Virus genome (UHGV): UHGV-0241329
Reading direction: 5' to 3' (one strand)
Length of the DNA: 31,428 nt
Source: a virus
Below the pieces are notes generated by a model. It ran no database searches and was not told the origin of the DNA. It worked only from the letters and a program-made list of their open reading frames with translations. Position 1 is the stretch's first letter, and the number at the start of each line of letters is the position of its first letter. The position numbers were made by a program, and so were the translations under genes. This document shows, piece by piece, positions 2,283-20,360 of the stretch.

Positions 2283-2516
2283 TCAATCTGGTCTGATCTG
2301 TTTTCTGAGCAATTCAGTAATGTCACTCTTTTCTTTGTTTGCTTCAGGAGAAACTCTTTTTTCTGAGCACAGTCTCCGGCGGCAGGCTTCAATGACCCAG
2401 GCTGAGAAATTCCCGGACCCTTTTTGATCAAGAGCGATGTTAATTTGTTCAATCATTGGGTTAGGAAAGCGGATGTTGCGGGTTGTTGTTCTGCGGGTTC
2501 TGTTCTTCGTTGACAT
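2283..2516 (-). CDS. ylcI: Small DNA-binding protein, YlcI/DUF3950-like
   Basis: 77-aa ORF; recalled close match to DLP12 YlcI (MSTKNRTRRTTTRNIRFPN.MIEQINIAL.QKGSGNFSAWVIEACRRRL); sits immediately upstream of cos. Confidence 0.6.
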   Translation of the reverse strand: MSTKNRTRRTTTRNIRFPNPMIEQINIALDQKGSGNFSAWVIEACRRRLCSEKRVSPEANKEKSDITELLRKQIRPD

Positions 2517-2689
2517 GAGGTTGTCCCGTATTCAGTGTCGCTGATTTGTATTGTCTGAAGTTGTTTTTACGTTAAGTTGATGCAGATCAATTAATATGAT
2601 ACCTGCGTCATAATTGATTATTTGACGTGGTTTGATGGCGTAGATGCACGTTGTGACATGCAGATGATAATTATTATCATTTTGCGGGT

Positions 2690-2900
2690 CCTTTCCGGCG
2701 ATCCGACAGGTTACGGGGCGGCGACCTCGCGGGTTTTCGCTATTTATGAAAATTTTCCGGTTTAAGGTGTTTCCGTTCTTCTTCGTCGTAACTTAATGTT
2801 TTTATTTAAAATACCCCCTGAAAAGAAAGGAAACGACAGGTGCTGAAAGCGAGCTTTTTGGCCTCTGTCGTTTCCTTTCTCTGTTTTTGTCCGTGGAATG
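2690..2900 (+). other. cos: Prophage cos site (cosQ-cosN-cosB); 12-nt cohesive end GGGCGGCGACCT at 2716..2727
   Basis: Sequence ...ATCCGACAGGTTACG/GGGCGGCGACCTCGCGGGTTTTCGCTATTTATGAAAATTTTCCGG... matches the recalled lambda cos ends; R-site-like motifs (CGTTTCC) continue up to Nu1. Confidence 0.9.
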
Positions 2901-3450: not shown

Positions 3451-7131
<3,681 letters not shown>

Positions 7132-8460: not shown

Positions 8461-8793
8461 ATGACGAGCAAAGAAACCTTTACCCATTACCAGCCGCTGG
8501 GCAACAGTGACCCGGCTCATACCGCAACCGCGCCCGGCGGGTTGAGTGCGAAAGCGCCTGCAATGACCCCGCTGATGCTGGACACCTCCACCCGTAAGCT
8601 GGTTGCGTGGGATGGCACCACCGACGGTGCTGCCGTTGGCATTCTTGCAGTTGCTGCTGACCAGACCAGCACCACACTGACGTTCTACAAGTCCGGCACG
8701 TTCCGTTATGAGGATGTGCTCTGGCCGGAGGCTGCCAGCGACGAGACGAAAAAACGGACCGCGTTTGCCGGAACGGCAATCAGCATCGTTTAA
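8461..8793 (+). CDS. D: Head decoration protein D
   Basis: 110-aa product [27 protein letters not shown]..., recalled lambda gpD. Confidence 0.95.
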
Positions 8794-8814
8794 CCTGACC
8801 CTTCATCACTAAAG

Positions 8815-8835
8815 GCCGCCTGTGCGGCTTTTTTT
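8815..8835 (+). terminator. Stem-loop with T-run between D and E
   Basis: GCCGC-CTGT-GCGGC followed by TTTTTTT. Confidence 0.4.
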
Positions 8836-8848
8836 ACGGGATTTTTTT

Positions 8849-9124
8849 ATGTCGATGTACACAACCGCCCAGCTGCTGGCGGCAAATGAGCAGAAATTTA
8901 AGTTTGATCCGCTGTTTCTGCGTCTCTTTTTCCGTGAGAGCTATCCCTTCACCACGGAGAAAGTCTATCTCTCACAAATTCCTGGACTGGTAAACATGGC
9001 GCTGTACGTTTCGCCAATTGTTTCCGGTGAGGTTATCCGTTCCCGTGGCGGCTCCACCTCTGAATTTACGCCGGGTTATGTCAAGCCGAAGCACTTAGCA
9101 TGGCTTTCTGAGGCTTTCGTGTAG
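8849..9124 (+). pseudogene. E: Major capsid protein E, 5' fragment (about 82 codons) truncated by the insertion and fused to 9 foreign codons (LAWLSEAFV)
   Basis: MSMYTTAQLLAANEQKFKFDPLFLRLFFRESYPFTTEKVYLSQIPGLVNMALYVSPIVSGEVIRSRGGSTSEFTPGYVKPKH matches recalled lambda gpE N-terminus, then diverges at 9094. Confidence 0.9.
9084..9093. repeat. attL core, AGCCGAAGCA (left copy of 10-bp direct repeat)
   Basis: Identical 10-mer at 9084..9093 and 20351..20360, exactly where lambda E homology stops and resumes. Confidence 0.8.
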
Positions 9125-9203
9125 TTGCTGGTTTTTACACTTAATCTTTTGATAATAAAGAATAAGTTTATCTGGCGCTTTCACTGAATTTTCCTCGTTA
9201 TCT

Positions 9204-9245
9204 GTGTGTTGCAATCATCTCTGTATTGCAGCTTGTATTGCTTTT
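9204..9245. repeat. Putative integrase arm-type sites (TGTATTGCA-like repeats) in attL arm
   Basis: TGTTGCAA / TGTATTGCA / TGTATTGC at 9207..9241; same motif twice near attR (20253..20273). Confidence 0.45.
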
Positions 9246-9256
9246 TGGGGCTAAAA

Positions 9257-10492
9257 ATGGCTGGCGAGAACAAACTGAGCGACAAAGCGCTTAAAGGATA
9301 TCTGGGGAAACCCAGAGAAAAGCAGATCACCATTGCTGATGGAAAGGGGCTTTCTATTCGTGTGAGTACTAAAGGGGCTGTGAGCTTTGTTTTCTTCTAC
9401 AGGTTAGCAGGTGGCCGGGCTGCTCCGGTCTGGCTAACGTTGGGTAAATATCCTGATATGTCACTCAAATAGGCAAGGGAAAAGCGCGACGAGTGCCGTG
9501 GTTGGTTGGTTGACAAACGTGATCCGCGTATCCAGATTAAGATTCAGGCTGAAGAACGCTTAAAGCCGGTCACAGTGGAGGATGCACTAAATTACTGGTA
9601 TGAAAATTACTGTAAGGTGCGTCGTAAAACTCATGCTGTAACGCTTGGCAGATTTCGAAAGCATATCTTTCCCTATATCGGTCATTTGCCCGTAAATGAC
9701 ACTCACCTATATGAATGGCTGGACTGTTTTGACCGAATTAAACGTAATGCACCAGTTATGGCGGCGTATGTTTTTTCTGACACTAAATTAGCTCTTCGTT
9801 TTTGTCGGGTACGCCAGTACGCGACGTGTGATGCTTTAAAGGATTTGCGCATGAGTGATGTGGGGCAGATTGCAGGTAAGCGGGATCGGGTTCTGGATGA
9901 AGCCGAACTGGGCCAGCTCTGGAAGGCAATTTTTGTCGAGCCTGATTTAAAACTAATGTCTGAATACACGCGAAAAATGTTTGTGCTTTGTACAGTATTT
10001 GGATGTCGAATGAGTGAAGCCCGATTATCTGAATGGAGCGAATGGGATCTCGAAAGTTGGGTTTGGACTGTACCAAAAGATCACTCAAAAACTGGTGTTG
10101 AAATCGTCAGACCAGTACCTGAAATTCTACGACAGTGGGTAACGGATGTTCACGAAGAGACAAAACATACTGGTTATGTGCTGGGAAGTCTGCGAATTAG
10201 AGAAAGCGTAAGCAAGATTGGGGGGAAAATCGGTAAACGTTTGGGCCATGAAAAACAATGGTCACTACACGACCTTAGAAGAACGCTATCTACTCATCTA
10301 AGTGATCTCGGTGTTGAATTTTATGTAGTAGAACAACTGTTAGGCCATGCGCTACCTGGCGTGGCAGGTGTTTACAACAGGAGTAAGTTTATGGCTAAAA
10401 AACTGGATGCTCTGGAACTCTGGACTACATATCTCAATAGCATCGCAGCTGCTGATTCAAAAGTGACAATCCTCAAACAAAAGGCTGGTTAA
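9257..10492 (+). pseudogene. int: Tyrosine integrase (P4-like family) interrupted by in-frame amber codon TAG at 9470..9472
   Basis: Two same-frame ORFs (9206..9472 and 9506..10492) separated only by TAG; N-terminal arm-binding-like domain; C-terminal catalytic motifs HDLRRT and LLGH..GVAGVYNRS. Confidence 0.8.
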
Positions 10493-10493
10493 C

Positions 10494-10721
10494 ATGAAAA
10501 AAATGGCAATTGTTGATAAAAAGGGTCTGGAGTACATTCCTAACATTGACCGAATGATCCGTGAGAAAGAATGTCGGGAGCTAACCACTCTTGCGAACAG
10601 CACACGCTGGAAGCTGGAGAAGGAAGGAAAATTTCCTAAGCGGATCAAGATTGGCGCTACTGCGGTAGCTTATCGTCTCTCCGAAGTTCAGGCATGGATT
10701 AAGGGAGAATGGAGTAATTAA
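10494..10721 (+). CDS. alpA: AlpA-family phage transcriptional regulator / excisionase-like HTH protein
   Basis: 75-aa ORF immediately after int; sequence resembles CP4-57 AlpA-type HTH proteins (LSEVQAWIKG-like C-terminus). Confidence 0.7.
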   Translation: MKKMAIVDKKGLEYIPNIDRMIREKECRELTTLANSTRWKLEKEGKFPKRIKIGATAVAYRLSEVQAWIKGEWSN

Positions 10722-10739
10722 ATAATAAGGTATTTCGAT

Positions 10740-11561
10740 ATGACAATGTGTGTTATTTGGAAGTCAGTTGATGGAACTATTTATGCCGCCACAGATTCTC
10801 GACTGAGCTTTGAAGAAAAAAAGTTAGATCGTTGCGTTAAAATATCCCGAATCACATGTCTTTTACATGAGCCTAGTGATGCAGTAGATACAAGTAAGAT
10901 ACTTGTTGATAAGCGTGAGATTGCTACATTATTCTGTGGAGGCTTTACAAATGCCTATATCATCAAGGAGAGCCTTACTGAGATTTTAAATAAAATAGTT
11001 CTCATGAGGGAATACTCCGGTGTGCCCTTTTCGGAAATTATAGATATAGCGTTTTCCATTTATGAAGATACATCAAGAGATATGTTTGCATCATTAATGG
11101 ACCAACGATTTGGATGTGTTTTTTACATGATAAGTTACTGCCCTGTATATAAGGAAATGCAAGCATTTAAATTTGAATTCAAAATAAATGAAAGCGGTAT
11201 TAACTATTATAAATCTAAACTTTTTGAAGATCGTAACTATGAGGTTAATGGAAGTGGGGTGAGGTACTTGGAACAAAATCATCGTATTGAAGATCTAGTT
11301 AAAGAAGCTTATCAGAAGAATAAATACACACCACTTCTAGATATACTTGAGTCCGTAATTAATGATGACGACTGTGACTCTGTTGGAGGTGCAATGCAAT
11401 ACATTTCATGTAATAAAGATAGTCTAAAATTGTGTTGTCATATGTTATTTGAAGAAAATAATTATAAGTATATGAAAGCTGGGGTGGACTTAAATGAACT
11501 CAATGAGAAGTTTATACCTTCTGGTTTGTTTTTTGAGACAGATGCAATCATCAAAAGATAA
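10740..11561 (+). CDS. Hypothetical protein, AT-rich cargo gene
   Basis: 273-aa ORF, visibly AT-rich; no motif recognised; N-terminus MTMCVIW... gives only a faint hint of an N-terminal Cys nucleophile. Confidence 0.55.
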   Translation: MTMCVIWKSVDGTIYAATDSRLSFEEKKLDRCVKISRITCLLHEPSDAVDTSKILVDKREIATLFCGGFTNAYIIKESLTEILNKIVLMREYSGVPFSEIIDIAFSIYEDTSRDMFASLMDQRFGCVFYMISYCPVYKEMQAFKFEFKINESGINYYKSKLFEDRNYEVNGSGVRYLEQNHRIEDLVKEAYQKNKYTPLLDILESVINDDDCDSVGGAMQYISCNKDSLKLCCHMLFEENNYKYMKAGVDLNELNEKFIPSGLFFETDAIIKR

Positions 11562-11866
11562 ACGATAACCGACTTTGATTGTGATAATTTTATCAAGATT
11601 ATGATGAATGCTGCAGTATATCTAACATGCTGCAGTTAACTCAATTTGTATTATCGCTAATATTTTTAATAACAAGGATGTTTATTGCTTTTTTATTTGA
11701 GAGTGAACGTCTAACCATTGTTGTTCTTAGTTCTCATGGAGAGATTGGAGCTTAAAATACGCAATGTTTTGAAATCAGCGCAACTATATTCCGTAATTGT
11801 TCTTTGTCGTTCTTGCGTGGCACGGTGATACACCTCTCATGTCGGTTGTTTTTTTGAACGCAGAAA

Positions 11867-11896
11867 CATAAAACAAAGGCGACCGGGATGGTCGCC
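11867..11896 (-). terminator. Intrinsic terminator downstream of the SWIM gene
   Basis: GGCGACC-GGGAT-GGTCGCC perfect 7-bp stem; on reverse strand followed by TTTGTTTTAT. Confidence 0.6.
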
Positions 11897-11964
11897 AGTG
11901 GCATAACACTAAAATTGAGCGTATTCAGAATACCAAGTGTCGGCTGGTGGACAATGGAATCAGT

Positions 11965-12321
11965 TCAATATTTAGGTGGTTCAACAAGAGCGTTTATCAT
12001 TGCTCTCAAATTATCGCGAACACTTATCCAAGTCTGTTCTGCTCGTTCTAACTCATTAGTGTACAGCTTTAATGTTTTATCTATGCCATATGTGGCTATT
12101 AAATTTATAGCTTCTTGTAACTTTTCGGGATTATTCCTTCTTGGGGGAGTGAATATACCGCGGATTTTTCCGGTAATTAAAGCTTTACGGTGTCTACATA
12201 GAATACCTTTACTTCCTGCTGGACAATTACAAGTCATGATTAGCGAGCCAGAATCGTTTGATACAGTGACTATGTATACATCCAAACTACTGCTACTTGT
12301 TGCGAAGAATTCGTATTTCAT
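11965..12321 (-). CDS. Small SWIM-type zinc-finger protein
   Basis: 118-aa ORF with CNC-x9-CRH (CxCx(n)CxH) motif; co-oriented 28 bp downstream of RHH gene. Confidence 0.55.
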   Translation of the reverse strand: MKYEFFATSSSSLDVYIVTVSNDSGSLIMTCNCPAGSKGILCRHRKALITGKIRGIFTPPRRNNPEKLQEAINLIATYGIDKTLKLYTNELERAEQTWISVRDNLRAMINALVEPPKY

Positions 12322-12348
12322 GTGTTAGCTCCTTGACTTCAATTATTC

Positions 12349-12543
12349 TTATCCTTTTGGTTCAATACCGCGCCGTAGCAGCTCTTTGCGCCCTAACTCT
12401 TTAAGCCAGTTGGCAAGGCTTACCCCATCGTTACTGGCTTCGTTATCAAACTGCTCCTTCAATTCAGGAACTATGCGCATATGGAACGGTGGGGCCTTTC
12501 CTGTGCCTTTTTGTTTTTTATCGCGCTTAATAACCGTTGACAT
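12349..12543 (-). CDS. Ribbon-helix-helix (Arc/CopG-like) DNA-binding protein, candidate element repressor
   Basis: 64-aa ORF; FHMRIVPELKEQF beta-strand followed by helices; start codon overlaps a palindromic operator. Confidence 0.5.
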   Translation of the reverse strand: MSTVIKRDKKQKGTGKAPPFHMRIVPELKEQFDNEASNDGVSLANWLKELGRKELLRRGIEPKG

Positions 12544-12600
12544 GTGTACACCTATAGCGTTATGTTTTTATTCGATAGGTGTACACCTTAACATGTGTGC
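12541..12600. promoter_or_regulatory. Divergent control region with palindromic operators
   Basis: GTGTACACCTAT (12544..12555) and its inverted copy ATAGGTGTACAC (12575..12586), each containing palindrome GTGTACAC; ACATGTGT repeated; TTGACA at 12537..12542. Confidence 0.5.
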
Positions 12601-12878
12601 ATTTAAAAACGCAACGCCCCGCAGTGCGGGAACACATGCAGGGCGTCTAACCACCAACGATAGCAACAGTATCGAGGTAGCTATGAGAAATCATACCACA
12701 CACCCGCAAGGGCGGGACTCGCACAACCTGAATAAATTCACTTGGCGCTTTATCGCCCTGAGTGCGGCTAAACCGCGCATGCTTACCATCGTGGTCACCA
12801 GCGAGCAGGAAGACCGCCAGCAATCCCCAACTGGCTGCGTGATGATATTCGCCGCCCGTATTCGTCAGGAGGTGTGCC

Positions 12879-13103
12879 ATGAATGATCTTTATTTTAAAG
12901 TGCTGACACATGCTGAAAACGCGCTCGTTTGTGGCAAAAATATGCGAGAAATCTTATCAACCTGGCTTGATGGGACAACAAATGCGGAACACGATGAACG
13001 GGATGCTAATTTAGCTGGAGCGTTAATTACGTTACTTGATCCTGTCATCAAAGAGCTGGATGAAGCTATAAAAATACACGACCAGAGCTATACCGGAGAA
13101 TAA
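12879..13103 (+). CDS. Hypothetical small protein
   Basis: 74-aa ORF, first gene of the rightward operon leading to primase. Confidence 0.45.
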   Translation: MNDLYFKVLTHAENALVCGKNMREILSTWLDGTTNAEHDERDANLAGALITLLDPVIKELDEAIKIHDQSYTGE

Positions 13104-13106
13104 AAA

Positions 13107-13394
13107 ATGAAAAATAAATTTTCTGGCTTTATTGCCAGCGGTCAAACTCATTCAAAAATCAGCCTTGGGGATATTTTCAAAGACAGCTATGGCTATCGGG
13201 TAAAGATTATTTCGGTTGATGATCGTCGTGTCTCTTATTTGCGTGATGGTTATGATTTTGAATGTGTTATGCCGCGTCAGCAGTTCGAAAGAGATTTCAT
13301 TCTGGTAAAAAATTGCAAGACAGATAATCAGAGGCGTGCCGCAGGCTATATCCGTAAAATTCGGGCAATGTTAGTTGCCGGAGGTAACAAATGA
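13107..13394 (+). CDS. Hypothetical small protein
   Basis: 95-aa ORF; 3' end overlaps primase start (ATGA). Confidence 0.45.
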   Translation: MKNKFSGFIASGQTHSKISLGDIFKDSYGYRVKIISVDDRRVSYLRDGYDFECVMPRQQFERDFILVKNCKTDNQRRAAGYIRKIRAMLVAGGNK

Positions 13395-15211
13395 AACGTG
13401 CTCCGAACTTAAAATACCAACCGCGCGACAAAATGACGGAAGTCATCATTTTTGCTGGCAGTGATGCCTGGAGCCATGCAAAAGAATGGAATGAATGGGC
13501 AGGTAAGCATATTGCAGCAGATGATACACCACCAGTCATTCTGGGTACGGAACAACTGGAAAACCTGGATGATATGCAAATTATCGATGAAGGCCGTCAT
13601 TATGTGCGTGTTTATCGTGCCGGAAAGATTGCAGAGAAAAGTCTGACGAAGGTTGCGACATTACTTGCTATTGCAGGCGTAAAGGAAGCACGTTGTTACC
13701 GTAGCTTTGTTGATCGAGAGCCTGAAGACTGGACTCCGCGCCTTGTCGGCCTAAAAGCTGAAGCGGAGCATGGGGAAAGTCTGGTGATTGAACTGCCAGT
13801 GAAGAAGGCAGAGCGCAAAAATGACGAGCGTGCTTCATCTTTGGCGTTGAATCAGATGGGGGCCAGCCAGCGCGGTGAAGTTCTCCTTGCACATTACGGC
13901 GGTGAACTGGCAATCAATGCCGACTCTGACACCGTTCATCATTACAACGGCGTTGTATGGGAGCCGGTTCAGGATAAAGAGTTACAGCGTTCTATGGCGC
14001 AGATTTTCATTGATGCGGAGATCAGCTATTCGCAGAACGCTATTAAATCGGCGGTAGATACCATGAAGTTAAGTTTGCCTGTAATGGGGAATACAGCCCG
14101 TAACCTGATTGGATTCAGTAACGGGGTATTTGATACCAGAACTGGTAATTTTCGGGAGCATAACAAAAACGACTGGTTGTTAATTGCCAGTGAATTACCT
14201 TTCAGCCCACCAGCAGAGGGGGAAACGCTGGCAACACATGCGCCGAATTTCTGGAAGTGGTTGCGCCGTTCGGTGGCTGAGAATGACCGCAAGGCAGATC
14301 GCGTACTGGCGGCATTATTCATGGTGCTGGCGAACCGGTACGACTGGCAGTTATTCATTGAGGTAACAGGGCCGGGGGGAAGTGGTAAAAGTGTGATGGC
14401 GGAGATTTGCACCATGCTGGCGGGTAAGGCTAATACAGTATCAGCAAGCATGAAGGCGCTGGAAGATGCAAGGGAACGTGCGTTAGTGGTTGGCTTTTCG
14501 CTGATTATCATGCCGGATATGACCCGCTACGCTGGTGATGGGGCAGGGATTAAGGCCATTACAGGCGGTGACAAGGTGGCAATTGACCCGAAACACAAAG
14601 CCCCCTATTCAACGCGTATTCCGGCAGTAGTGCTGGCGGTTAACAATAACGCCATGTCATTCAGTGACCGCAGCGGGGGGATCTCACGTCGTCGGGTGAT
14701 ATTCAATTTTTCGGAAGTTGTACCGGAGAACGAACGCGATTCGATGCTGGCGGAAAAAATAGAAGGTGAGCTGGCGGTAGTGATTCGTCATCTGCTTACA
14801 AGGTTTGCTGATCAGGACGAAGCCAGACGCCTGTTATATGAGCAGCAGAAATCTGAAGAAGCACTGGCGATAAAGCGAGAGGGGGATTCGCTGGTGGACT
14901 TCTGCGGTTATCTCATGGCATCGGTAATGTGTGATGGCCTGTTAGTGGGTAATGCTGAAATTGTGCCATTCAGCCCACGCAGGTATCTCTATCATGCCTA
15001 TCTGGCTTATATGAGGGCACATGGGTTTGGTAAACCTGTAACACTGACGCGCTTCGGTAAAGATATGCCGGGGGCAATGGCGGAATATGGCAGGGAGTAT
15101 ATGAAACGGAAAACGAAGCACGGTTTGCGTTCAAACGTGACACTGACGGAGGAATCAGAAGACTGGATGCCATCATGTGTATCGGTCACTAATGACGATA
15201 GCAAAAATTAA
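13391..15211 (+). CDS. Primase-helicase replication protein (P4 alpha / PICI Pri-Rep-like)
   Basis: 606-aa ORF; Walker A EVTGPGGSGKS in C-terminal half; followed directly by iteron origin. Confidence 0.75.
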   Translation: MKRAPNLKYQPRDKMTEVIIFAGSDAWSHAKEWNEWAGKHIAADDTPPVILGTEQLENLDDMQIIDEGRHYVRVYRAGKIAEKSLTKVATLLAIAGVKEARCYRSFVDREPEDWTPRLVGLKAEAEHGESLVIELPVKKAERKNDERASSLALNQMGASQRGEVLLAHYGGELAINADSDTVHHYNGVVWEPVQDKELQRSMAQIFIDAEISYSQNAIKSAVDTMKLSLPVMGNTARNLIGFSNGVFDTRTGNFREHNKNDWLLIASELPFSPPAEGETLATHAPNFWKWLRRSVAENDRKADRVLAALFMVLANRYDWQLFIEVTGPGGSGKSVMAEICTMLAGKANTVSASMKALEDARERALVVGFSLIIMPDMTRYAGDGAGIKAITGGDKVAIDPKHKAPYSTRIPAVVLAVNNNAMSFSDRSGGISRRRVIFNFSEVVPENERDSMLAEKIEGELAVVIRHLLTRFADQDEARRLLYEQQKSEEALAIKREGDSLVDFCGYLMASVMCDGLLVGNAEIVPFSPRRYLYHAYLAYMRAHGFGKPVTLTRFGKDMPGAMAEYGREYMKRKTKHGLRSNVTLTEESEDWMPSCVSVTNDDSKN

Positions 15212-15220
15212 ACTTATGGA

Positions 15221-15455
15221 ATAACTGTTCACCACTGTTCACCCTGTCATAAATATCTTTTATATCAGTATATTATAGGGTGAACAGTTATTTATGAACT
15301 GTTCACCAAACTATTCACTGTTCACCTTTTTGATTGTTTATTGAGCTTCAAGGGTGAACAGTGGTGAACAGTTGGTGAATAGTTTTTGTGAAACTGTTCA
15401 CCCATTAACATTATGAATTAAAAGAGAAAATATCAAAAGGTGAACAGGTGAAGGG
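15221..15455. repeat. ori: Replication origin with iterons (TGTTCACC / GGTGAACA), at least 9 copies in both orientations
   Basis: CTGTTCACC at 15225 and 15235; GGTGAACAG at 15278, 15352, 15362, 15439; further copies at 15299, 15318, 15394; interspersed AT-rich stretches. Confidence 0.75.
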
Positions 15456-15498
15456 TTAAAACGCAAAAATTTTAATTTACTGCTGTGAGATAAAGCCT

Positions 15499-15744
15499 AT
15501 GACAGCGAAGCACACAAAAAAATCACAATCGCACGCCCTTGATTTGACGGAACACTGGTTAAGGGTGTCGATAAAAATCATCGACCGCAACGCCGGGGAA
15601 GGATACGCGAAAGCACATCCCGAACTGATTAGCGCATTCATGACAACGGCGGCTGCAAACTTTGCCACTCTGACCGAACGGGAGATTGCTGAAGCGGAGG
15701 AAGTGACAACAATCAATATTAAGTCCGGAGAGCAGGCAGCATGA
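15499..15744 (+). CDS. Hypothetical protein
   Basis: 81-aa ORF between ori and ssb; ATGA overlap with ssb. Confidence 0.45.
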   Translation: MTAKHTKKSQSHALDLTEHWLRVSIKIIDRNAGEGYAKAHPELISAFMTTAAANFATLTEREIAEAEEVTTINIKSGEQAA

Positions 15745-16190
15745 CGGCGCAAATATCAGTTTACGGGCGGTTGGTGGACGACCCGCAGACAAAACAGACC
15801 AGCAAGAGCACCCCCATGACGCTGGCACGTATGGCGGTATCACTGCCCTGCAGTCAGTCGGATGACGGTCAGGCGACGATGTGGTTATCTGTCCTGGCGT
15901 TTGGCAGACAAGCCGACGCGCTGGCAAAGCATCACAAAGGCGAACTCCTGAGCGTGGCGGGTAATATGCAGGTGAGCCAGTGGACTGGACAGAACGGTGA
16001 AACGCGGCAGGGCTGGCAGGTTATCGCAGACAGCGTAATCAGTGCGCGAACGGTGCGACCGGGCGGCAAAAAAGGTCAACAGGGTCAGGCTACTGACGCA
16101 CTGAACAGAGCAAAACAACAGGCAGATCAGCAAGGAAGCCATCCACCAGTGGGAGATAATGAGCAATGGGGAGATGATATTCCGTTTTAA
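15741..16190 (+). CDS. ssb: Single-stranded DNA-binding protein
   Basis: 149-aa ORF; Gly/Gln-rich linker and acidic C-terminal tail ...GDDIPF, typical of SSB. Confidence 0.8.
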   Translation: MTAQISVYGRLVDDPQTKQTSKSTPMTLARMAVSLPCSQSDDGQATMWLSVLAFGRQADALAKHHKGELLSVAGNMQVSQWTGQNGETRQGWQVIADSVISARTVRPGGKKGQQGQATDALNRAKQQADQQGSHPPVGDNEQWGDDIPF

Positions 16191-16402
16191 ATATTGCCAA
16201 TAAAAAAGGCCGGAAAAAAAATAAATTTTCCGGCATGCTACATAAATCCCGACCAAAGGGAGTGAAGATATTAACACTAATTATCCGCGCTGAAGTTGTT
16301 ATCCCAAAACTTTATACAACATTGCACTCGGTTGCATGTATTCGCATGATAAATATCGGTGATAGCATATATCCACAATTATTTTTAATGAATGCAAAGA
16401 GG

Positions 16403-17449
16403 ATGCGTATGGTTGATTTATATTCGCCTACCCAGCTTGTACAGGTGGTTAATGCTGTAGATGTACAAAAACAACTAAATGCGTTGTTTACCAGTTTGTT
16501 TTTTACTCGCTCGGTAATGTTTGAATCGCGCGATATTATTCTTGATACAATCGACGATCCAAATATCCCAATTGCAGCGTTTTGTTCTCCTATGGTGGGT
16601 AGTAAAGTTTCACGTGACGAAGGGTACGAATCAAAAACAATTCGTCCAGGCTATATGAAGCCGAAAAGCAGCATTGATCCAAATAAGTTAGCTGTGCGCC
16701 CTGCTGGTGTATCACCTGAGCAATACAATGCTTTTGGAGCGCGTAATATTAAAGTTAAACAGGCGATTGTAAATCAGGCTAAAGCTATTCGTGCACGTAT
16801 TGAATGGCTTGCCGTTCAGGCAATCACAACGGGGAAAAATATCATTGAGGGCGATGGTATTGAACGTTATGAGCTGGACTGGAATATTAAACCACAAAAT
16901 ATCATCACTCAGTCTGGCGGTGCTGAGTGGTCAGGTAAGGATAAAGAAACTTTTGATCCAAATGATGATATTGAGAGCTACGCAGAATTTAGTGAGGGCG
17001 TCACTAATATCATCATTATGGGCGGTAATGTATGGAAGAAATACCGTTCATTCAGAGCGATAAAAGAGGCTCTGGATACCCGTCGTGGTTCTAATTCCGA
17101 ACTGGAAACGGCCCTTAAAGACCTTGGTGATTCGGTGAGTTTTAAAGGGTATATGGGCGATGTTGCGATTGTTGTATACAGCGGGCGTTATACCGATGAG
17201 GACGGAACTGAAAAACATTTCCTTGATCCTGATTTGATGGTGCTTGGCAATACAGCTCTTCAGGGGATTGTCGCCTATGGCGGTATTCAGGATCCGGAGC
17301 TAATCCGAATGGGGCTGACTAAAGCCGAACTTGCACCGAAAAACTATATTGTGCCTGGTGATCCGGCTATTGAATATGTGCAGACACATTCAGCACCACA
17401 GCCAATACCGGCCCGCATCAATCGTTTTGTTACCGTTCGCATTGGCTAA
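16403..17449 (+). CDS. Major capsid protein, divergent homolog of lambda gpE, encoded by the element
   Basis: Aligns along its length with lambda gpE, e.g. ITQSGGAEWSGKDKETFDPNDDIESYA vs ITQSGGTEWSKRDKSTYDPTDDIEAYA, and LDTRRGSNSELETA identical; start uncertain among ATG 16388/16403/16409. Confidence 0.8.
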   Translation: MRMVDLYSPTQLVQVVNAVDVQKQLNALFTSLFFTRSVMFESRDIILDTIDDPNIPIAAFCSPMVGSKVSRDEGYESKTIRPGYMKPKSSIDPNKLAVRPAGVSPEQYNAFGARNIKVKQAIVNQAKAIRARIEWLAVQAITTGKNIIEGDGIERYELDWNIKPQNIITQSGGAEWSGKDKETFDPNDDIESYAEFSEGVTNIIIMGGNVWKKYRSFRAIKEALDTRRGSNSELETALKDLGDSVSFKGYMGDVAIVVYSGRYTDEDGTEKHFLDPDLMVLGNTALQGIVAYGGIQDPELIRMGLTKAELAPKNYIVPGDPAIEYVQTHSAPQPIPARINRFVTVRIG

Positions 17450-17458
17450 GGGGGAGCA

Positions 17459-17800
17459 ATGGCTACTCATTACACTGAACTCATGGCTGGCACTGAAGCA
17501 CTGGTGACTACGCTGGGGATATTTTCAGCTAATAAAGGGGTAATTCCTGCATTTACGCCACTGATGCAGGAAGATGCAACAGGTGCACTGGTGGTATGGG
17601 ATGGTTCGAGCGTAGGTAAAGCGGTTTATGTTTCCGCTGTACAAATCGACACCGCGAAAAAAACACAGGCTCAGGTCTATAAGACAGGTGTCTTAAATGT
17701 TGATGCTCTGAACTGGCCTGAGTCTGTAAAAGAACTGTCAGTAAAGATTGCAGCGTTTGTTGGCTCAGGTATTTCTGTTCAGCCGCTGGCTCGTGTGTAA
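17459..17800 (+). CDS. Head decoration protein, divergent homolog of lambda gpD
   Basis: 113 aa; LVVWDGSSVGKAVYVSAVQ...KTGVLNVDALNWPE...AAFVGSGISV parallels lambda gp[20 protein letters not shown]...[14 protein letters not shown]...[11 protein letters not shown]. Confidence 0.65.
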   Translation: MATHYTELMAGTEALVTTLGIFSANKGVIPAFTPLMQEDATGALVVWDGSSVGKAVYVSAVQIDTAKKTQAQVYKTGVLNVDALNWPESVKELSVKIAAFVGSGISVQPLARV

Positions 17801-17811
17801 AGGGGGATACA

Positions 17812-18195
17812 ATGCAGAATGATTACAATGACCTTAAGCCAATTGCCGAAATGATGTACCCGAATCCAGCTGTAGAGGAATTAAAAGCTATCGCTGACAA
17901 AATGTGTTTAAGCGAGCGCCTTGTTGATATGAATCAGGTGATGGAAATTACAACCCTGAGTCGGCGTACACTGCTAAACCTTGAGGCTAGTGGAGAGTTC
18001 CCGGAGCGTGTGCAGGTTACGGAAGGGCGTAAGGCCTGGTATTTAAGTGAAGTGATCGACTGGATAAATAATATTCCTCGCGCTTCTGAATATTGCCGCG
18101 TACCTGTCCCAAAAAAGCCAGATGCGGCGCTATGCCTCAAGATTGAGCGTGTACGCCGCAATGCACGGGATGGTCGCTATAAGCTGATTGGTTGA
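17812..18195 (+). CDS. HTH protein (AlpA-like DNA-binding segment) immediately upstream of element cos
   Basis: 127 aa; segment MNQVMEITTLSRRTLLNLEASGEFPERVQVTEGRKAWYLSEVIDWINN resembles AlpA/MerR-type HTH. Confidence 0.5.
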   Translation: MQNDYNDLKPIAEMMYPNPAVEELKAIADKMCLSERLVDMNQVMEITTLSRRTLLNLEASGEFPERVQVTEGRKAWYLSEVIDWINNIPRASEYCRVPVPKKPDAALCLKIERVRRNARDGRYKLIG

Positions 18196-18214
18196 TGAAA
18201 TTAGGGCCCGCTCT

Positions 18215-18425
18215 GGCTGGCGGGTCCTTTCTGGCGATCTGACAGGCTACGGGGCGTCAGGCGCGCAGATTCTTGCTATTTATGACAATTTTCTGCGATT
18301 TGCCGTTTCCGTTCTTCTTCCTCGTAACTTAGTGTTTTTATTAGAAATACCCTCTAAAAAGAAAGGAAATGACAGGTGCTGAAAACAGGCTTTTGGGTCT
18401 CCGTCATTTCCTTTCTCATTTTTAT
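18215..18425 (+). other. cos: Element cos site, homologous to prophage cos but with divergent cohesive-end sequence GGGCGTCAGGCG (18252..18263)
   Basis: Aligns with 2690..2900: cosQ-like GCGGGTCCTTTCTGGCGATCTGACAGGCTACG and cosB-like GTTTCCGTTCTTCTTC / AAAGAAAGGAAATGACAGGTGCTGAAA conserved; cohesive-end 12-mer differs at 5 of 12 positions. Confidence 0.8.
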
Positions 18426-18679
18426 CTAAAAGTAAGCATCGAGGCCACCCCAAATGCTTATAGAGGTTATTGTGTCACTATGCGTACTGTTCAGGATTTA
18501 AAGTAGCAAGACATCTAGTTGCTTGCAGTTTTGGCGAATGATGTGAGGTTCTGCTATAACAGATAATGTAACAAGTTACTGATATATTCTGTTATGGTTG
18601 ACTTTAAATTTTGTTGCTCCTTCAATGAATTATTGAGGGGTGAAAATTAGGCGTGATAAGAATCGATCACGCCTATTGT

Positions 18680-19996
18680 TTATCTTGAAGAAATTTTAGG
18701 CAGGCTTTTTAAAAATAAATCTTTATTTCTACTTGCATCAGTTAAAAGTGTTAGGAATATTTTATCTGTAGGAGTGCATGTGCTCTTGTTTAACAGTAAT
18801 TCACCAAGTTTCTGTAATCGAGAGAATTGCCCATCCTCTTGGATTCTGTGACGAAGTGTACTATCATTTTTAATAACATCAACAAATGCAGAAACCATGT
18901 TAATATCAAAGTGTTCAAACATTTCCAATATTAAAGGTGCAGCCCCATTTGAATAAAAATTCTTCCTTCCATACTGATAGCTGAAACCACGATGGCCAAC
19001 ATAAGTTTTTGTAATGGCTGAAACAAATTCAACAATATTATCTTCAGGGACGAAACTCGAGAATGGTAATAATTGGGTTACGATTTTTTCCTCTTCTGAC
19101 CAATTATCTAAAGACTCGGTGAGTTTATTAATGAGAGGCTCAATAATAACTTTTCGGGATGCAGGGCTAATATACATCAGTCCATCTACCAATAGTATGA
19201 ATTGTTGTGCCTTCTCTATCTTATTGTTGTTTCCTGAAACTAAATACTTGTCAAATTGTTGGCCGACTTTACGTCGGTCGTCTTTTGAAAGTAATGTCCA
19301 TAAAATAGGTGCGCAAAATTCAATGTTGTTTCTGAGTTCACTTGATATATTGGATGAGCAGTATGTGCCAAAAAAACGAGAGGATAATTCACTGATATAA
19401 ATTGCAGGTAGATCTGAAAAGGCTTGCTTAACTGCCAGGCTATTTTTATTAAATGTTGCCGAATCCATTTCTGAAAGATATGTAGATATATCTATGATGG
19501 CTGGTGGAAACTCTTTAGAAAGAACGTATTTATTACAATCATTAATCAGGTTCACTACTTTGATTAAATCAGGGTCGCTACTTTGTGGATGTCCACCAAA
19601 TAGATTCCTGGTTTCTCTAGCTTGTTGTAATAGTTTCTGACCTTCTCGATCGATAACTCCTATTTTAAATGCTCCATCTATTAAATCAAAGTCGCTCACA
19701 TAATCCTGAAAATCTTCATACGTTTTAATTTCTTTTTTTTGTTTACACTCTTTGTTGAATAGATCTAGGCTACGATGAATTATCTTTTGACGTAAATCAT
19801 CAACTACAGCATTCCAGTAAGCAGTGATGGCACTTCTATAACCTTTTACAGGAAGAACTCTTATTGCTTCTGAAATATATGGGCAGTCAACTACATCATG
19901 CCTCACAGTTGAGAGCGCAGTTTGTAACAATGTAACTTCTGTAGAGTCTAGTGGAGTTGGCTGCACTAAATGAGAACTTATCTCTGTACCCTTCAT
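18680..19996 (-). CDS. Hypothetical protein, AT-rich cargo gene at attR end
   Basis: 438-aa ORF on reverse strand, visibly AT-rich; no motif recognised; hairpin AGGCGTGAT-N8-ATCACGCCT at 18649..18674 just 3' of it. Confidence 0.55.
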   Translation of the reverse strand: MKGTEISSHLVQPTPLDSTEVTLLQTALSTVRHDVVDCPYISEAIRVLPVKGYRSAITAYWNAVVDDLRQKIIHRSLDLFNKECKQKKEIKTYEDFQDYVSDFDLIDGAFKIGVIDREGQKLLQQARETRNLFGGHPQSSDPDLIKVVNLINDCNKYVLSKEFPPAIIDISTYLSEMDSATFNKNSLAVKQAFSDLPAIYISELSSRFFGTYCSSNISSELRNNIEFCAPILWTLLSKDDRRKVGQQFDKYLVSGNNNKIEKAQQFILLVDGLMYISPASRKVIIEPLINKLTESLDNWSEEEKIVTQLLPFSSFVPEDNIVEFVSAITKTYVGHRGFSYQYGRKNFYSNGAAPLILEMFEHFDINMVSAFVDVIKNDSTLRHRIQEDGQFSRLQKLGELLLNKSTCTPTDKIFLTLLTDASRNKDLFLKSLPKISSR

Positions 19997-20350
19997 TTCA
20001 GGATTTTCCTATTCTTTTCCATTTTTCTACTCTATTGAATTTGAAAAAGATATCAAGTTCGTTCTTGCCAGTTTTAAGTGGAAAAATTGATGTTACCTTA
20101 TTGAGATAAGGCAGTTCTCTATAACCTATTGTTATTAATTATTTTTATTTTTTTTCCAATTCAGATGTTTAGGGCTAAGAAGTTAAGTGAGAGTTCACAG
20201 CAAAACTGCTTCTAGTTCCTCACCGAGGAGCAAAAGGTTAAGACAGCGTACTTTGTATTGCACAATGTATTGCAGAACCTTCTTTCGAAAGCTACAACAA
20301 TCAATTTTATATTGAAAATTCAATCATATCCTTTCGATATTGACTCATAT

Positions 20351-20360
20351 AGCCGAAGCA
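20351..20360. repeat. attR core, AGCCGAAGCA (right copy of 10-bp direct repeat)
   Basis: Identical to 9084..9093; lambda E homology resumes here. Confidence 0.8.

Follow-up and report, generated by a model that had tools for sequence, protein, structure and literature searches.

What keeps the satellite in this locus quiescent inside its host, and what releases it when a helper phage is induced? The question is raised by a 31,428-nucleotide stretch of the UHGV virus genome UHGV-0241329 (the window, meaning the whole stretch at its full length), in which a lambdoid prophage is interrupted by a phage-inducible chromosomal island (PICI). The repressor of Gram-negative PICIs has been called "unclear", and AlpA is described as their helper-induced activator (PMC6092414). 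The original prediction for the window proposed a repressor/anti-repressor control point in a leftward operon that encodes a 64-amino-acid ribbon-helix-helix (RHH) protein and a 118-amino-acid SWIM-finger protein, and both open reading frames (ORFs) are present as described. At a probability of roughly 65%, we consider the RHH protein to be an Arc/Mnt-type autoregulated repressor of the PICI replication operon, and the position of the SWIM gene to be a slot for interchangeable cargo. Comparison of loci supports the reality of the RHH gene, its fold family, the co-variation of protein and operator, the conservation of promoter elements and the variability of the cargo. The control-point half of the earlier proposal is right, given predicted operators on the promoters of both transcription units and their co-variation with the RHH beta-strand, and it is more general than had been supposed; the anti-repressor half is not supported. 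The protein is of an ordinary kind, found in a setting where no repressor had been recognised.

The 64-amino-acid ORF is a real gene and encodes an Arc-type RHH protein. Its frame is unbroken in 52 of 52 unique homologous coding sequences, with a pN/pS of 0.22. A profile built from 17 homologues matches the Arc repressor (1b28) over residues 12–59 (E = 7e-4), and the protein also matches phrog_228, "Arc-like repressor", in PHROGs (E = 2.4e-5) and TraJ NF010451 (E = 1.1e-3). Structure prediction, which had been proposed as a check, gave a SWIM model with a predicted local distance difference test score (pLDDT) of 81 and, for the RHH protein, an AlphaFold2 (AF2) model with an extended segment followed by two confident helices (residues 26–38 and 43–57, helix pLDDT >90). 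The latter has the elements of an RHH core, namely a PPFHMRI strand, the first helix, a DGVS turn and the second helix.

Immediately upstream of this gene, the inverted repeat that had been reported (GTGTACACCTAT / ATAGGTGTACAC) is exact, at 12544–12555 and 12575–12586. The RHH start codon (ATG, 12543..12541), which was thought to sit inside the repeat, abuts it instead. Each arm is itself a 12-bp palindrome, giving two predicted operators, O1 and O2, whose core centres are 35 bp apart (Table 1). The motif AGGTGTACAC, with at most one mismatch, occurs five times in the window, with four of the occurrences at 12542–12588, and 0 of 100 shuffles reached five. The fifth, GTGTACAGCT (12059–12068, minus strand, one mismatch), lies within the SWIM coding region and may be there by chance, about one such match being expected in the window. 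A possible weak third site in the control region is present in the window's specificity class and is not conserved in the others.

The strongest pattern emerged from related loci. We collected 104 loci with RHH homologues, which reduced to 57 unique combinations of protein and upstream sequence. Each of the 57 carries a palindromic site twice, the starts of the two copies lying a near-constant distance apart (mode 31 nt), and the proximal copy abuts the RHH start codon. The operator core differs by group and tracks the RHH residues aligned to Arc Q9, N11 and R13; the association between this beta-strand triple and the core is perfect, with seven specificity classes. In the window's own class, PFHMRI (PHR), the core is GTGTACAC (11 combinations, window included). 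QFRMRI (QRR) goes with GTG[GA][TC]CAC (GTGRYCAC) in 13 of 14 combinations, the fourteenth (L086) having a mis-assigned RHH start, and AFQ[IV]RI (AQR) with GT[GA][CT]GTAC (GTRYGTAC; 23 combinations). The smaller classes are TFQIRI (TQR) with GTACGTAC (5 combinations), MFNVRI (MNR) with GTATAGAC (2), IFSIRL (ISR) with GTATGGAC (1) and QYQIRL (QQR) of Cedecea, with the core TGTAATTACA (site TTGTAATTACAA). Operators of a specificity other than the window's include AGGTGTGTACCT and TTACGTACGTAA.

Promoter-like elements around these sites are conserved as well. TTGACA, the complement of RHH codons 1–3, was found in 56 of the 57 unique loci with O1 filling the spacer after it, and in six loci of different classes that we inspected by eye a -10-like hexamer lies 17–18 nt further on (TATGTT in the window and TATTAT, TAGTAT or TAAGAT elsewhere, with only a poor TAGCCT in EDL933). 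On the RHH strand, TGnTAnnnT overlaps the distal half of O2 in 55 of 57 loci, despite the changing sequence of O2. The start sites predicted from these elements, at ~12573 (rightward) and ~12578 (leftward), face each other. Taken together, the operators and promoter elements make up the pattern that comparison of loci would show for a repressor divided into specificity classes. The rightward operon does depart from this control region, as had been proposed; its start had been put at 12879, and its first gene is instead the Icd-like gene at 12683.

From this arrangement we infer DNA binding by the RHH protein and a repressive direction of regulation. RHH dimers would bind the two palindromes. 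O1 would lie between the -35 (TTGACA) and the -10 of the rightward promoter, which would drive the Icd-like gene and the replication genes (DUF4222, primase), and since O1 lies on that promoter its occupancy would keep replication silent in the integrated state. O2 would overlap the extended -10 and the start site of RHH's own leftward promoter, resulting in negative autoregulation, and because the predicted start sites are only a few bases apart and face each other, transcriptional interference would also be expected. In the dormant island, the RHH protein would repress at O1 and limit its own operon at O2, with the cargo gene co-expressed. Comparative evidence supports this dormant-state step, while the layout and published AlpA data point to the steps that would follow. 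Upon helper induction, helper-dependent transcription would enter from int-alpA, as published for such satellites, and helper late transcription may also enter in the embedded configuration, as proposed by PMC10111431. Transcription from int-alpA would cross the SWIM and RHH genes in antisense and continue into the replication operon, bypassing the repressed promoter, and this antisense read-through would interfere with repressor synthesis.

Table 1. Coordinates of features in the window and, where a locus is named, of corresponding genes in related loci.
Feature	Position	Strand	Basis or remark
RHH (Arc-like) gene, predicted repressor, 64 aa	12349..12543	-	ORF, profile, PHROGs, AF2, frame conservation
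SWIM zinc-finger gene, 118 aa, second in leftward operon	11965..12321	-	Pfam SWIM, AF2
Predicted operator O1, ATGTGTACACCT	12542-12553		abuts RHH start codon; in rightward-promoter spacer
Predicted operator O2, AGGTGTACACCT	12577-12588		perfect 12-bp palindrome; overlaps RHH promoter -10
Possible weak third site, AACATGTGTGCA	12590..12601		direct-repeat family D1
Putative rightward promoter of Icd-like/replication operon	12537..12566	+	TTGACA, 18 nt, TATGTT; consensus scan, 10/12 matches
Putative extended -10 of RHH-SWIM promoter, TGtTAAGGT	12585..12593	-	overlaps left half of O2
Conserved hairpin H1, 33 nt	12614-12646	-	followed by UUGCGUUUUU on minus strand
Leader of rightward operon	12647..12682	+	conserved CUAACCACC, hairpin H2 (12658-12674), Shine-Dalgarno GAGG
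Icd-like gene, 67 aa, first in rightward operon	12683..12886	+	NF033153, E = 1.6e-10; PGAP annotation of homologues
Candidate antisense RNA, ~80 nt	12603..12698	-	putative promoter TGgTATGAT 12698..12690; putative terminator H1
Terminator-like hairpin and T-run ending RHH-SWIM operon	11878..11896	-	consensus scan
273-aa ORF after alpA	10740-11561	+	phrog_16034; low GC
Satellite capsid gene	16235-17449
Satellite decoration gene	17459-17800
438-aa ORF at satellite 3' end	18680-19996	-	weak PD-T7-3 similarity, E = 0.023; low GC
L008 (Klebsiella), YlcI/YnfO gene in RHH position	6791-6973
L140 (ABU 83972, CFT073-like PICI), YlcI/YnfO gene in RHH position	2701-2880
L141, YlcI/YnfO gene in RHH position	2571-2876
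L014 (EDL933), RHH gene	9001-9192	-
L014 (EDL933), annotated ORF over RHH gene	8558-9301	+
L019, ORF or pseudogene over RHH gene	2139-2789	+
L020, ORF or pseudogene over RHH gene	2502-2768	+	flagged "internal stop"

The second gene of the operon follows the RHH gene after 27 nt, with its own Shine-Dalgarno sequence (AAGGAG, 12334..12329), and no terminator was found between the two. Its product scores 24.1 bits against the Pfam SWIM model (PF04434, cut-off 19.6). The motif, which had been given as CxC-x9-CxH, is in fact CxC-x8-CxH (C31, C33, C42, H44), and all four residues are invariant across 25 diverse homologues. In the AF2 model, three strands form a sheet that, together with short helices, surrounds the zinc site; helices 65–77 and 80–113 come next and may be read as a helical hairpin. 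No structural match for the model was found. When we searched Pfam, PHROGs and NCBIfam for homology to known anti-repressors (Ant, KilAC, Bro-N, AntA/B), they returned only SWIM itself and phrog_13130 (function unknown). The family extends well beyond satellites: a profile search gave 298 clusters from many phyla, and a full-library search gave 196 representative clusters with the size and architecture of the SWIM protein, while a related-locus search using a narrower SWIM alignment found two genomes only. Among cultured phage records, none has the SWIM protein and three have the RHH protein.

What bears most directly on the SWIM protein is the position of its gene. Directly after the RHH stop codon, on the same strand and with a gap of 3–32 nt, related loci hold more than ten families of genes. 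The occupants are SWIM (20 loci), a 135–147-aa membrane protein (9 loci), PD-T7-1 (7 loci, PADLOC E = 2e-153), a 395-aa DUF5677 protein (5 loci), a 227-aa putAbiC (AbiC-like) protein (5 loci, Pfam E = 2.8e-16), proteins of 241, 176 and 180 aa (a few loci each) and, in the remaining loci, small ORFs or nothing. In the window and in L017 the RHH protein is identical (WP_001306492.1) and the operators are nearly so, yet the next gene is SWIM in the window and encodes an unrelated 176-aa membrane protein in L017. Conversely, SWIM co-occurs with RHH proteins of the PHR, QRR, AQR and TQR classes, with the Cedecea RHH protein and with a Klebsiella protein of the DUF3950 type (below), and it stands without any RHH gene, antisense within the early operon, in a Phytobacter prophage. 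PD-T7-1 is a validated defence gene (PMC9519451), and immune genes are carried near the 5' end of PICIs (PMC11364771). A fixed position, variable genes and known defence genes among the occupants are what characterise a defence hotspot. SWIM is therefore best read as interchangeable cargo, transcribed along with the repressor from a slot for accessory or defence genes, and not as a component of the switch; its role is most likely an accessory one, such as an anti-phage or exclusion activity.

The original prediction had cast SWIM as a possible anti-repressor or helper-sensing partner that lifts RHH repression on helper induction. In its favour, the order of the operon, RHH gene first, mirrors arc-ant of P22 immI, the pairing recurs in PICIs of E. 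coli, Klebsiella and Cedecea even where the SWIM proteins are only 34–54% identical, and SWIM domains can mediate contacts with protein or DNA. Against this, an identical RHH gene adjoins unrelated genes or none, SWIM combines freely with RHH proteins of six or more specificities (the DUF3950 type included), its homologues occur without RHH in a prophage and beside ligA in free-living bacteria, and constitutive expression from the repressor's promoter would demand an extra layer of control, of which we saw no sign; this reading is probably wrong, and we hold it to be unlikely. The ligA neighbourhood suggests a different role, to which we assign a similarly low chance, in which the SWIM protein acts on DNA ligation. 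The small SWIM/coiled-coil protein would then belong to a widespread family working with NAD-dependent ligase, and the satellite and prophage copies, derived from a cellular LigA-associated factor, might modulate or block the host ligase or act at nicked or cohesive ends, impairing cos-end joining and nick sealing in competing or helper phages, for example against competitors or to bias the processing of helper DNA. The satellite copy would be expressed from the repressor's promoter during dormancy. Full-length homologues (profile E down to 1e-7 or lower) from several lineages do lie near ligA, mostly directly downstream of it and sometimes overlapping (L107–L112, L126, L128, L129, L131, L135–L139). 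This gene for NAD-dependent ligase directly precedes the SWIM homologue, or is within two genes, in all three chromosomal contexts that we looked up, and it is adjacent on the same strand at 9 of 27 SWIM loci in a metagenome scan (8 immediately upstream, 1 ~1.5 kb downstream), where the LigA proteins share 33–65% identity with each other. However, the case is one of gene neighbourhood, the P0216-like SWIM subclade mostly lacks the link, PICI copies are 25–35% identical to the ligA-linked ones, there was no structural match, and a literature search for a link between SWIM and ligA found nothing.

Two further readings concern the RHH gene itself, and we regard both as very improbable. A type II toxin-antitoxin module, with RHH as antitoxin and SWIM as a toxin that stabilises the island, was named by the original prediction as an outcome that would overturn it. 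A small RHH gene in first position with autoregulatory palindromes is typical of such modules, and NCBI labels close homologues as HicB family antitoxins. Yet the Pfam HicB model (PF05534) gives 16.4 bits, short of its cut-off of 21, and aligns to residues 20–48, the RHH part, alone, and no HicA toxin gene adjoins RHH, whose neighbours are SWIM, PD-T7-1, membrane proteins or nothing. The chain continues for only 7 residues past helix 2, leaving no toxin-neutralising tail. The predicted operators sit on the promoter of the replication operon, and obligate pairing fails, since WP_001306492.1 has differing downstream genes and RHH occurs without SWIM in more than 1000 contigs. Least probable of all, by a little, is that the small ORF is not a functional element, that the palindromes serve replication or another protein such as AlpA, and that the real gene is a plus-strand ORF. 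Such a frame is open in the window (12386–12886), overlapping the RHH gene in the same wobble phase, and the Prokaryotic Genome Annotation Pipeline (PGAP) annotates a 247-aa or 216-aa version of it in EDL933 and JNE141411. But the antisense frame has stop codons in 14 of the 52 unique homologous sequences, with one annotation flagged for an internal stop (L020), whereas no break occurs in the RHH frame, whose product matches Arc, and the operator core tracks the RHH beta-strand. An autoregulated RHH repressor with a cargo slot behind it accounts best for these data, although several points weigh against it. The promoters and start sites all come from consensus matching, and the leftward promoter was not called by the consensus scan. 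SWIM is the commonest occupant of the slot and stays next to RHH in Cedecea and Klebsiella at the low identities given above, so this persistent adjacency could reflect a functional tie beyond a shared insertion slot. Only two slot families match known defence genes (PD-T7-1 and putAbiC), SWIM and the others being unmatched, and in PADLOC SWIM matches a single defence model, the candidate PDC-S62, and that weakly (E = 1e-4). Finally, the published AlpA-activator model needs no repressor (PMC6092414).

The RHH family is distributed well beyond the window. Its genes lie between alpA and the replication operon, encoded on the other strand, in E. coli P4-like elements (more than 1000 contigs), in the prototype EcCIEDL933 of the capsid-forming PICIs (cf-PICIs) and in PICIs of Edwardsiella, Providencia, Yersinia, Symbiopectobacterium and Cedecea. 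By blastn, the RHH gene with its operators is present in 222 of 5426 complete E. coli genomes, and the adjoining leader and Icd-like region in 1155 of them. A YlcI/YnfO (DUF3950) protein takes the RHH position in the E. coli genomes ABU 83972 and 2014C-3057 and in a Klebsiella PICI. The DUF3950 family probably consists of RHH repressors too, as the Klebsiella protein aligns to our RHH profile (hhalign probability 92%, E = 7e-7) and both this locus and that of ABU 83972 have their own inverted repeat upstream (GGTGTATTTCACC / GGTGAAATACACC in the latter). A 2026 survey gives HicB and YlcI/YnfO of PICIs only as accessory or toxin-antitoxin genes, and our search of the literature on an RHH protein or repressor in Gram-negative PICIs, or on SWIM in satellites, found nothing relevant. 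In RefSeq, PGAP places a long plus-strand "hypothetical protein" rich in Cys, Ser and Arg over the RHH gene in EDL933 and other genomes, so the intact 63–64-aa RHH ORF is missing from those annotations.

Between the operators and the Icd-like gene, the leader contains further conserved structure. We assessed its hairpins by folding each sequence separately in place of RNAalifold, which found no consensus on a MAFFT alignment of the leaders, the indels in the stem shifting the register. Among 57 leaders, hairpin H1 is kept in almost all, with compensatory changes in the stem. As an A-tract precedes it on the plus strand, H1 reads as an intrinsic terminator on the minus strand, for leftward transcription just upstream of the RHH promoter. 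On the minus strand, a conserved TATG[AC]T lies past the Icd-like start codon at a distance of 4–10 nt, and in the window it is preceded by TG. This -10-like element (TATGAT at 12695–12690 in the window) and the conserved terminator hairpin suggest an antisense RNA of ~80 nt, with a predicted start near 12683 and end at about 12605, which would cover the ribosome site and start codon of the Icd-like gene. When the minus-strand RNA of 12690–12600 is folded, two hairpins form (-38.5 kcal/mol, z = -6.0), and the candidate has a weak SymR-like match in Rfam (E = 0.13). The window has no Rfam match at gathering thresholds, 12300–13100 has nothing convincing at E up to 10, and C4 and IsrK are absent even at that level. 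A consensus scan for plus-strand terminators found none within 11600–13200.

Junctions between related loci suggest how these parts are exchanged. Nucleotide homology between L017 and the window runs from exactly the RHH stop codon to the end of the Icd-like gene. That of L019 stops at 12659, within the conserved leader motif CTAACCA, which implies that RHH, operators and H1 travel as one unit, and that of L020 begins at 11875, near the terminator of the RHH-SWIM operon. The pattern suggests that conserved sequences at the junctions act as recombination joints for module exchange. Such junctions are sharp, L018, like L017, having homology that begins at the RHH stop codon (12349). We also considered the Icd-like protein as a partner co-adapted to the RHH protein and rejected it, given that Icd-like types assort independently of RHH class and that the L019 homology ends upstream of the gene.

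The rest of the window is the late region of the lambdoid prophage (terminase, portal, S49 protease, decoration protein and tail genes), in which a lambda E-like major capsid gene is interrupted by the ~11.3-kb satellite, roughly from 9094 to 20360. A 10-bp identity block, AGCCGAAGCA, is present at both junctions (9084–9093 and 20351–20360). The order of satellite genes is int, alpA, a 273-aa ORF, SWIM and RHH (both leftward), the Icd-like gene, a 74-aa ORF, DUF4222, a D5/P4-type primase, a single-stranded DNA-binding protein, capsid, decoration, a helix-turn-helix protein and a leftward 438-aa ORF. With integration within a helper late gene, a short identity block and the order int-alpA-primase, the element is of a known type, the helper-embedded PICI of the capsid-E site ("11capE" type, PMC10111431). 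The 273-aa and 438-aa ORFs have a G+C content of 34–40% and flank the core genes. They are probably further accessory cargo, because related islands have DUF2971 or other genes at those positions.

If our reading is correct, induction, so far explained by the activator AlpA alone, could also involve a repressor, a role that this small gene could fill. With several specificity classes, the gene is found in helper-embedded PICIs, the cf-PICI prototype, CFT073-type PICIs and P4-like elements, where it often goes unannotated, is labelled HicB or YlcI/YnfO, or, as in EDL933, lies hidden under a spurious antisense ORF. The classes would account for the coexistence of several related satellites in one cell without cross-repression. 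The gene and its operators make the passage from quiescence to induction directly testable. The cargo slot, expressed together with the repressor and already occupied by validated defence genes in some loci, also provides uncharacterised candidates, with SWIM the first to consider.

Several known systems resemble this locus in part. The element shares with the 11capE type its site and its gene order, in which int and alpA are accompanied by dynamic and replication zones and by capsid and decoration genes belonging to the satellite; in that account the leftward genes are treated as hypothetical, and it describes Bro-network proteins and immunity RNAs of the zone, the RHH repressor and its operators being absent (PMC10111431; Tommasini, Mageeney and Williams 2023). 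Like defence hotspots and the accessory regions at the 5' and 3' ends of PICIs, the slot is a fixed position between conserved genes with differing occupants, including validated or family-assigned anti-phage proteins. It differs in being the second cistron of the repressor's own operon, and SWIM is in no defence catalogue, its PDC-S62 similarity apart. PD-T7-1 is reportedly due to Vassallo in 2022, and Rousset is said to have described the defence hotspots of phages and satellites in the same year. A structured leader before an icd-like first early gene recalls P1 immI (c4 RNA, icd, ant) and the CI RNA region of P4. Here, in contrast, Rfam gave no C4 or IsrK match, the hairpin reads as a terminator for the opposite strand, and control is predicted to include a protein repressor. 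As with Stl/Rpr of the Gram-positive PICIs (Staphylococcus aureus pathogenicity islands, SaPIs), the repressor gene would be transcribed away from the satellite's replication operon and would serve quiescence. Stl proteins, larger and of the helix-turn-helix type, are inactivated when they bind a helper protein, whereas the protein described here is a 64-aa RHH protein without an obvious sensor domain, and published induction runs via AlpA. The closest parallel is Arc/Mnt of P22 immI. There the second gene is ant and the divergent partner is mnt, while here the second gene does not resemble ant, the replication operon takes the divergent position, and two separate predicted 12-bp sites take the place of the single 21-bp operator of P22. 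The likeness lies in a protein of similar size with an RHH core that matches Arc, in palindromic operators (predicted here) over promoter elements, and in a probably autoregulated gene that comes first in a short operon with a second gene behind it.

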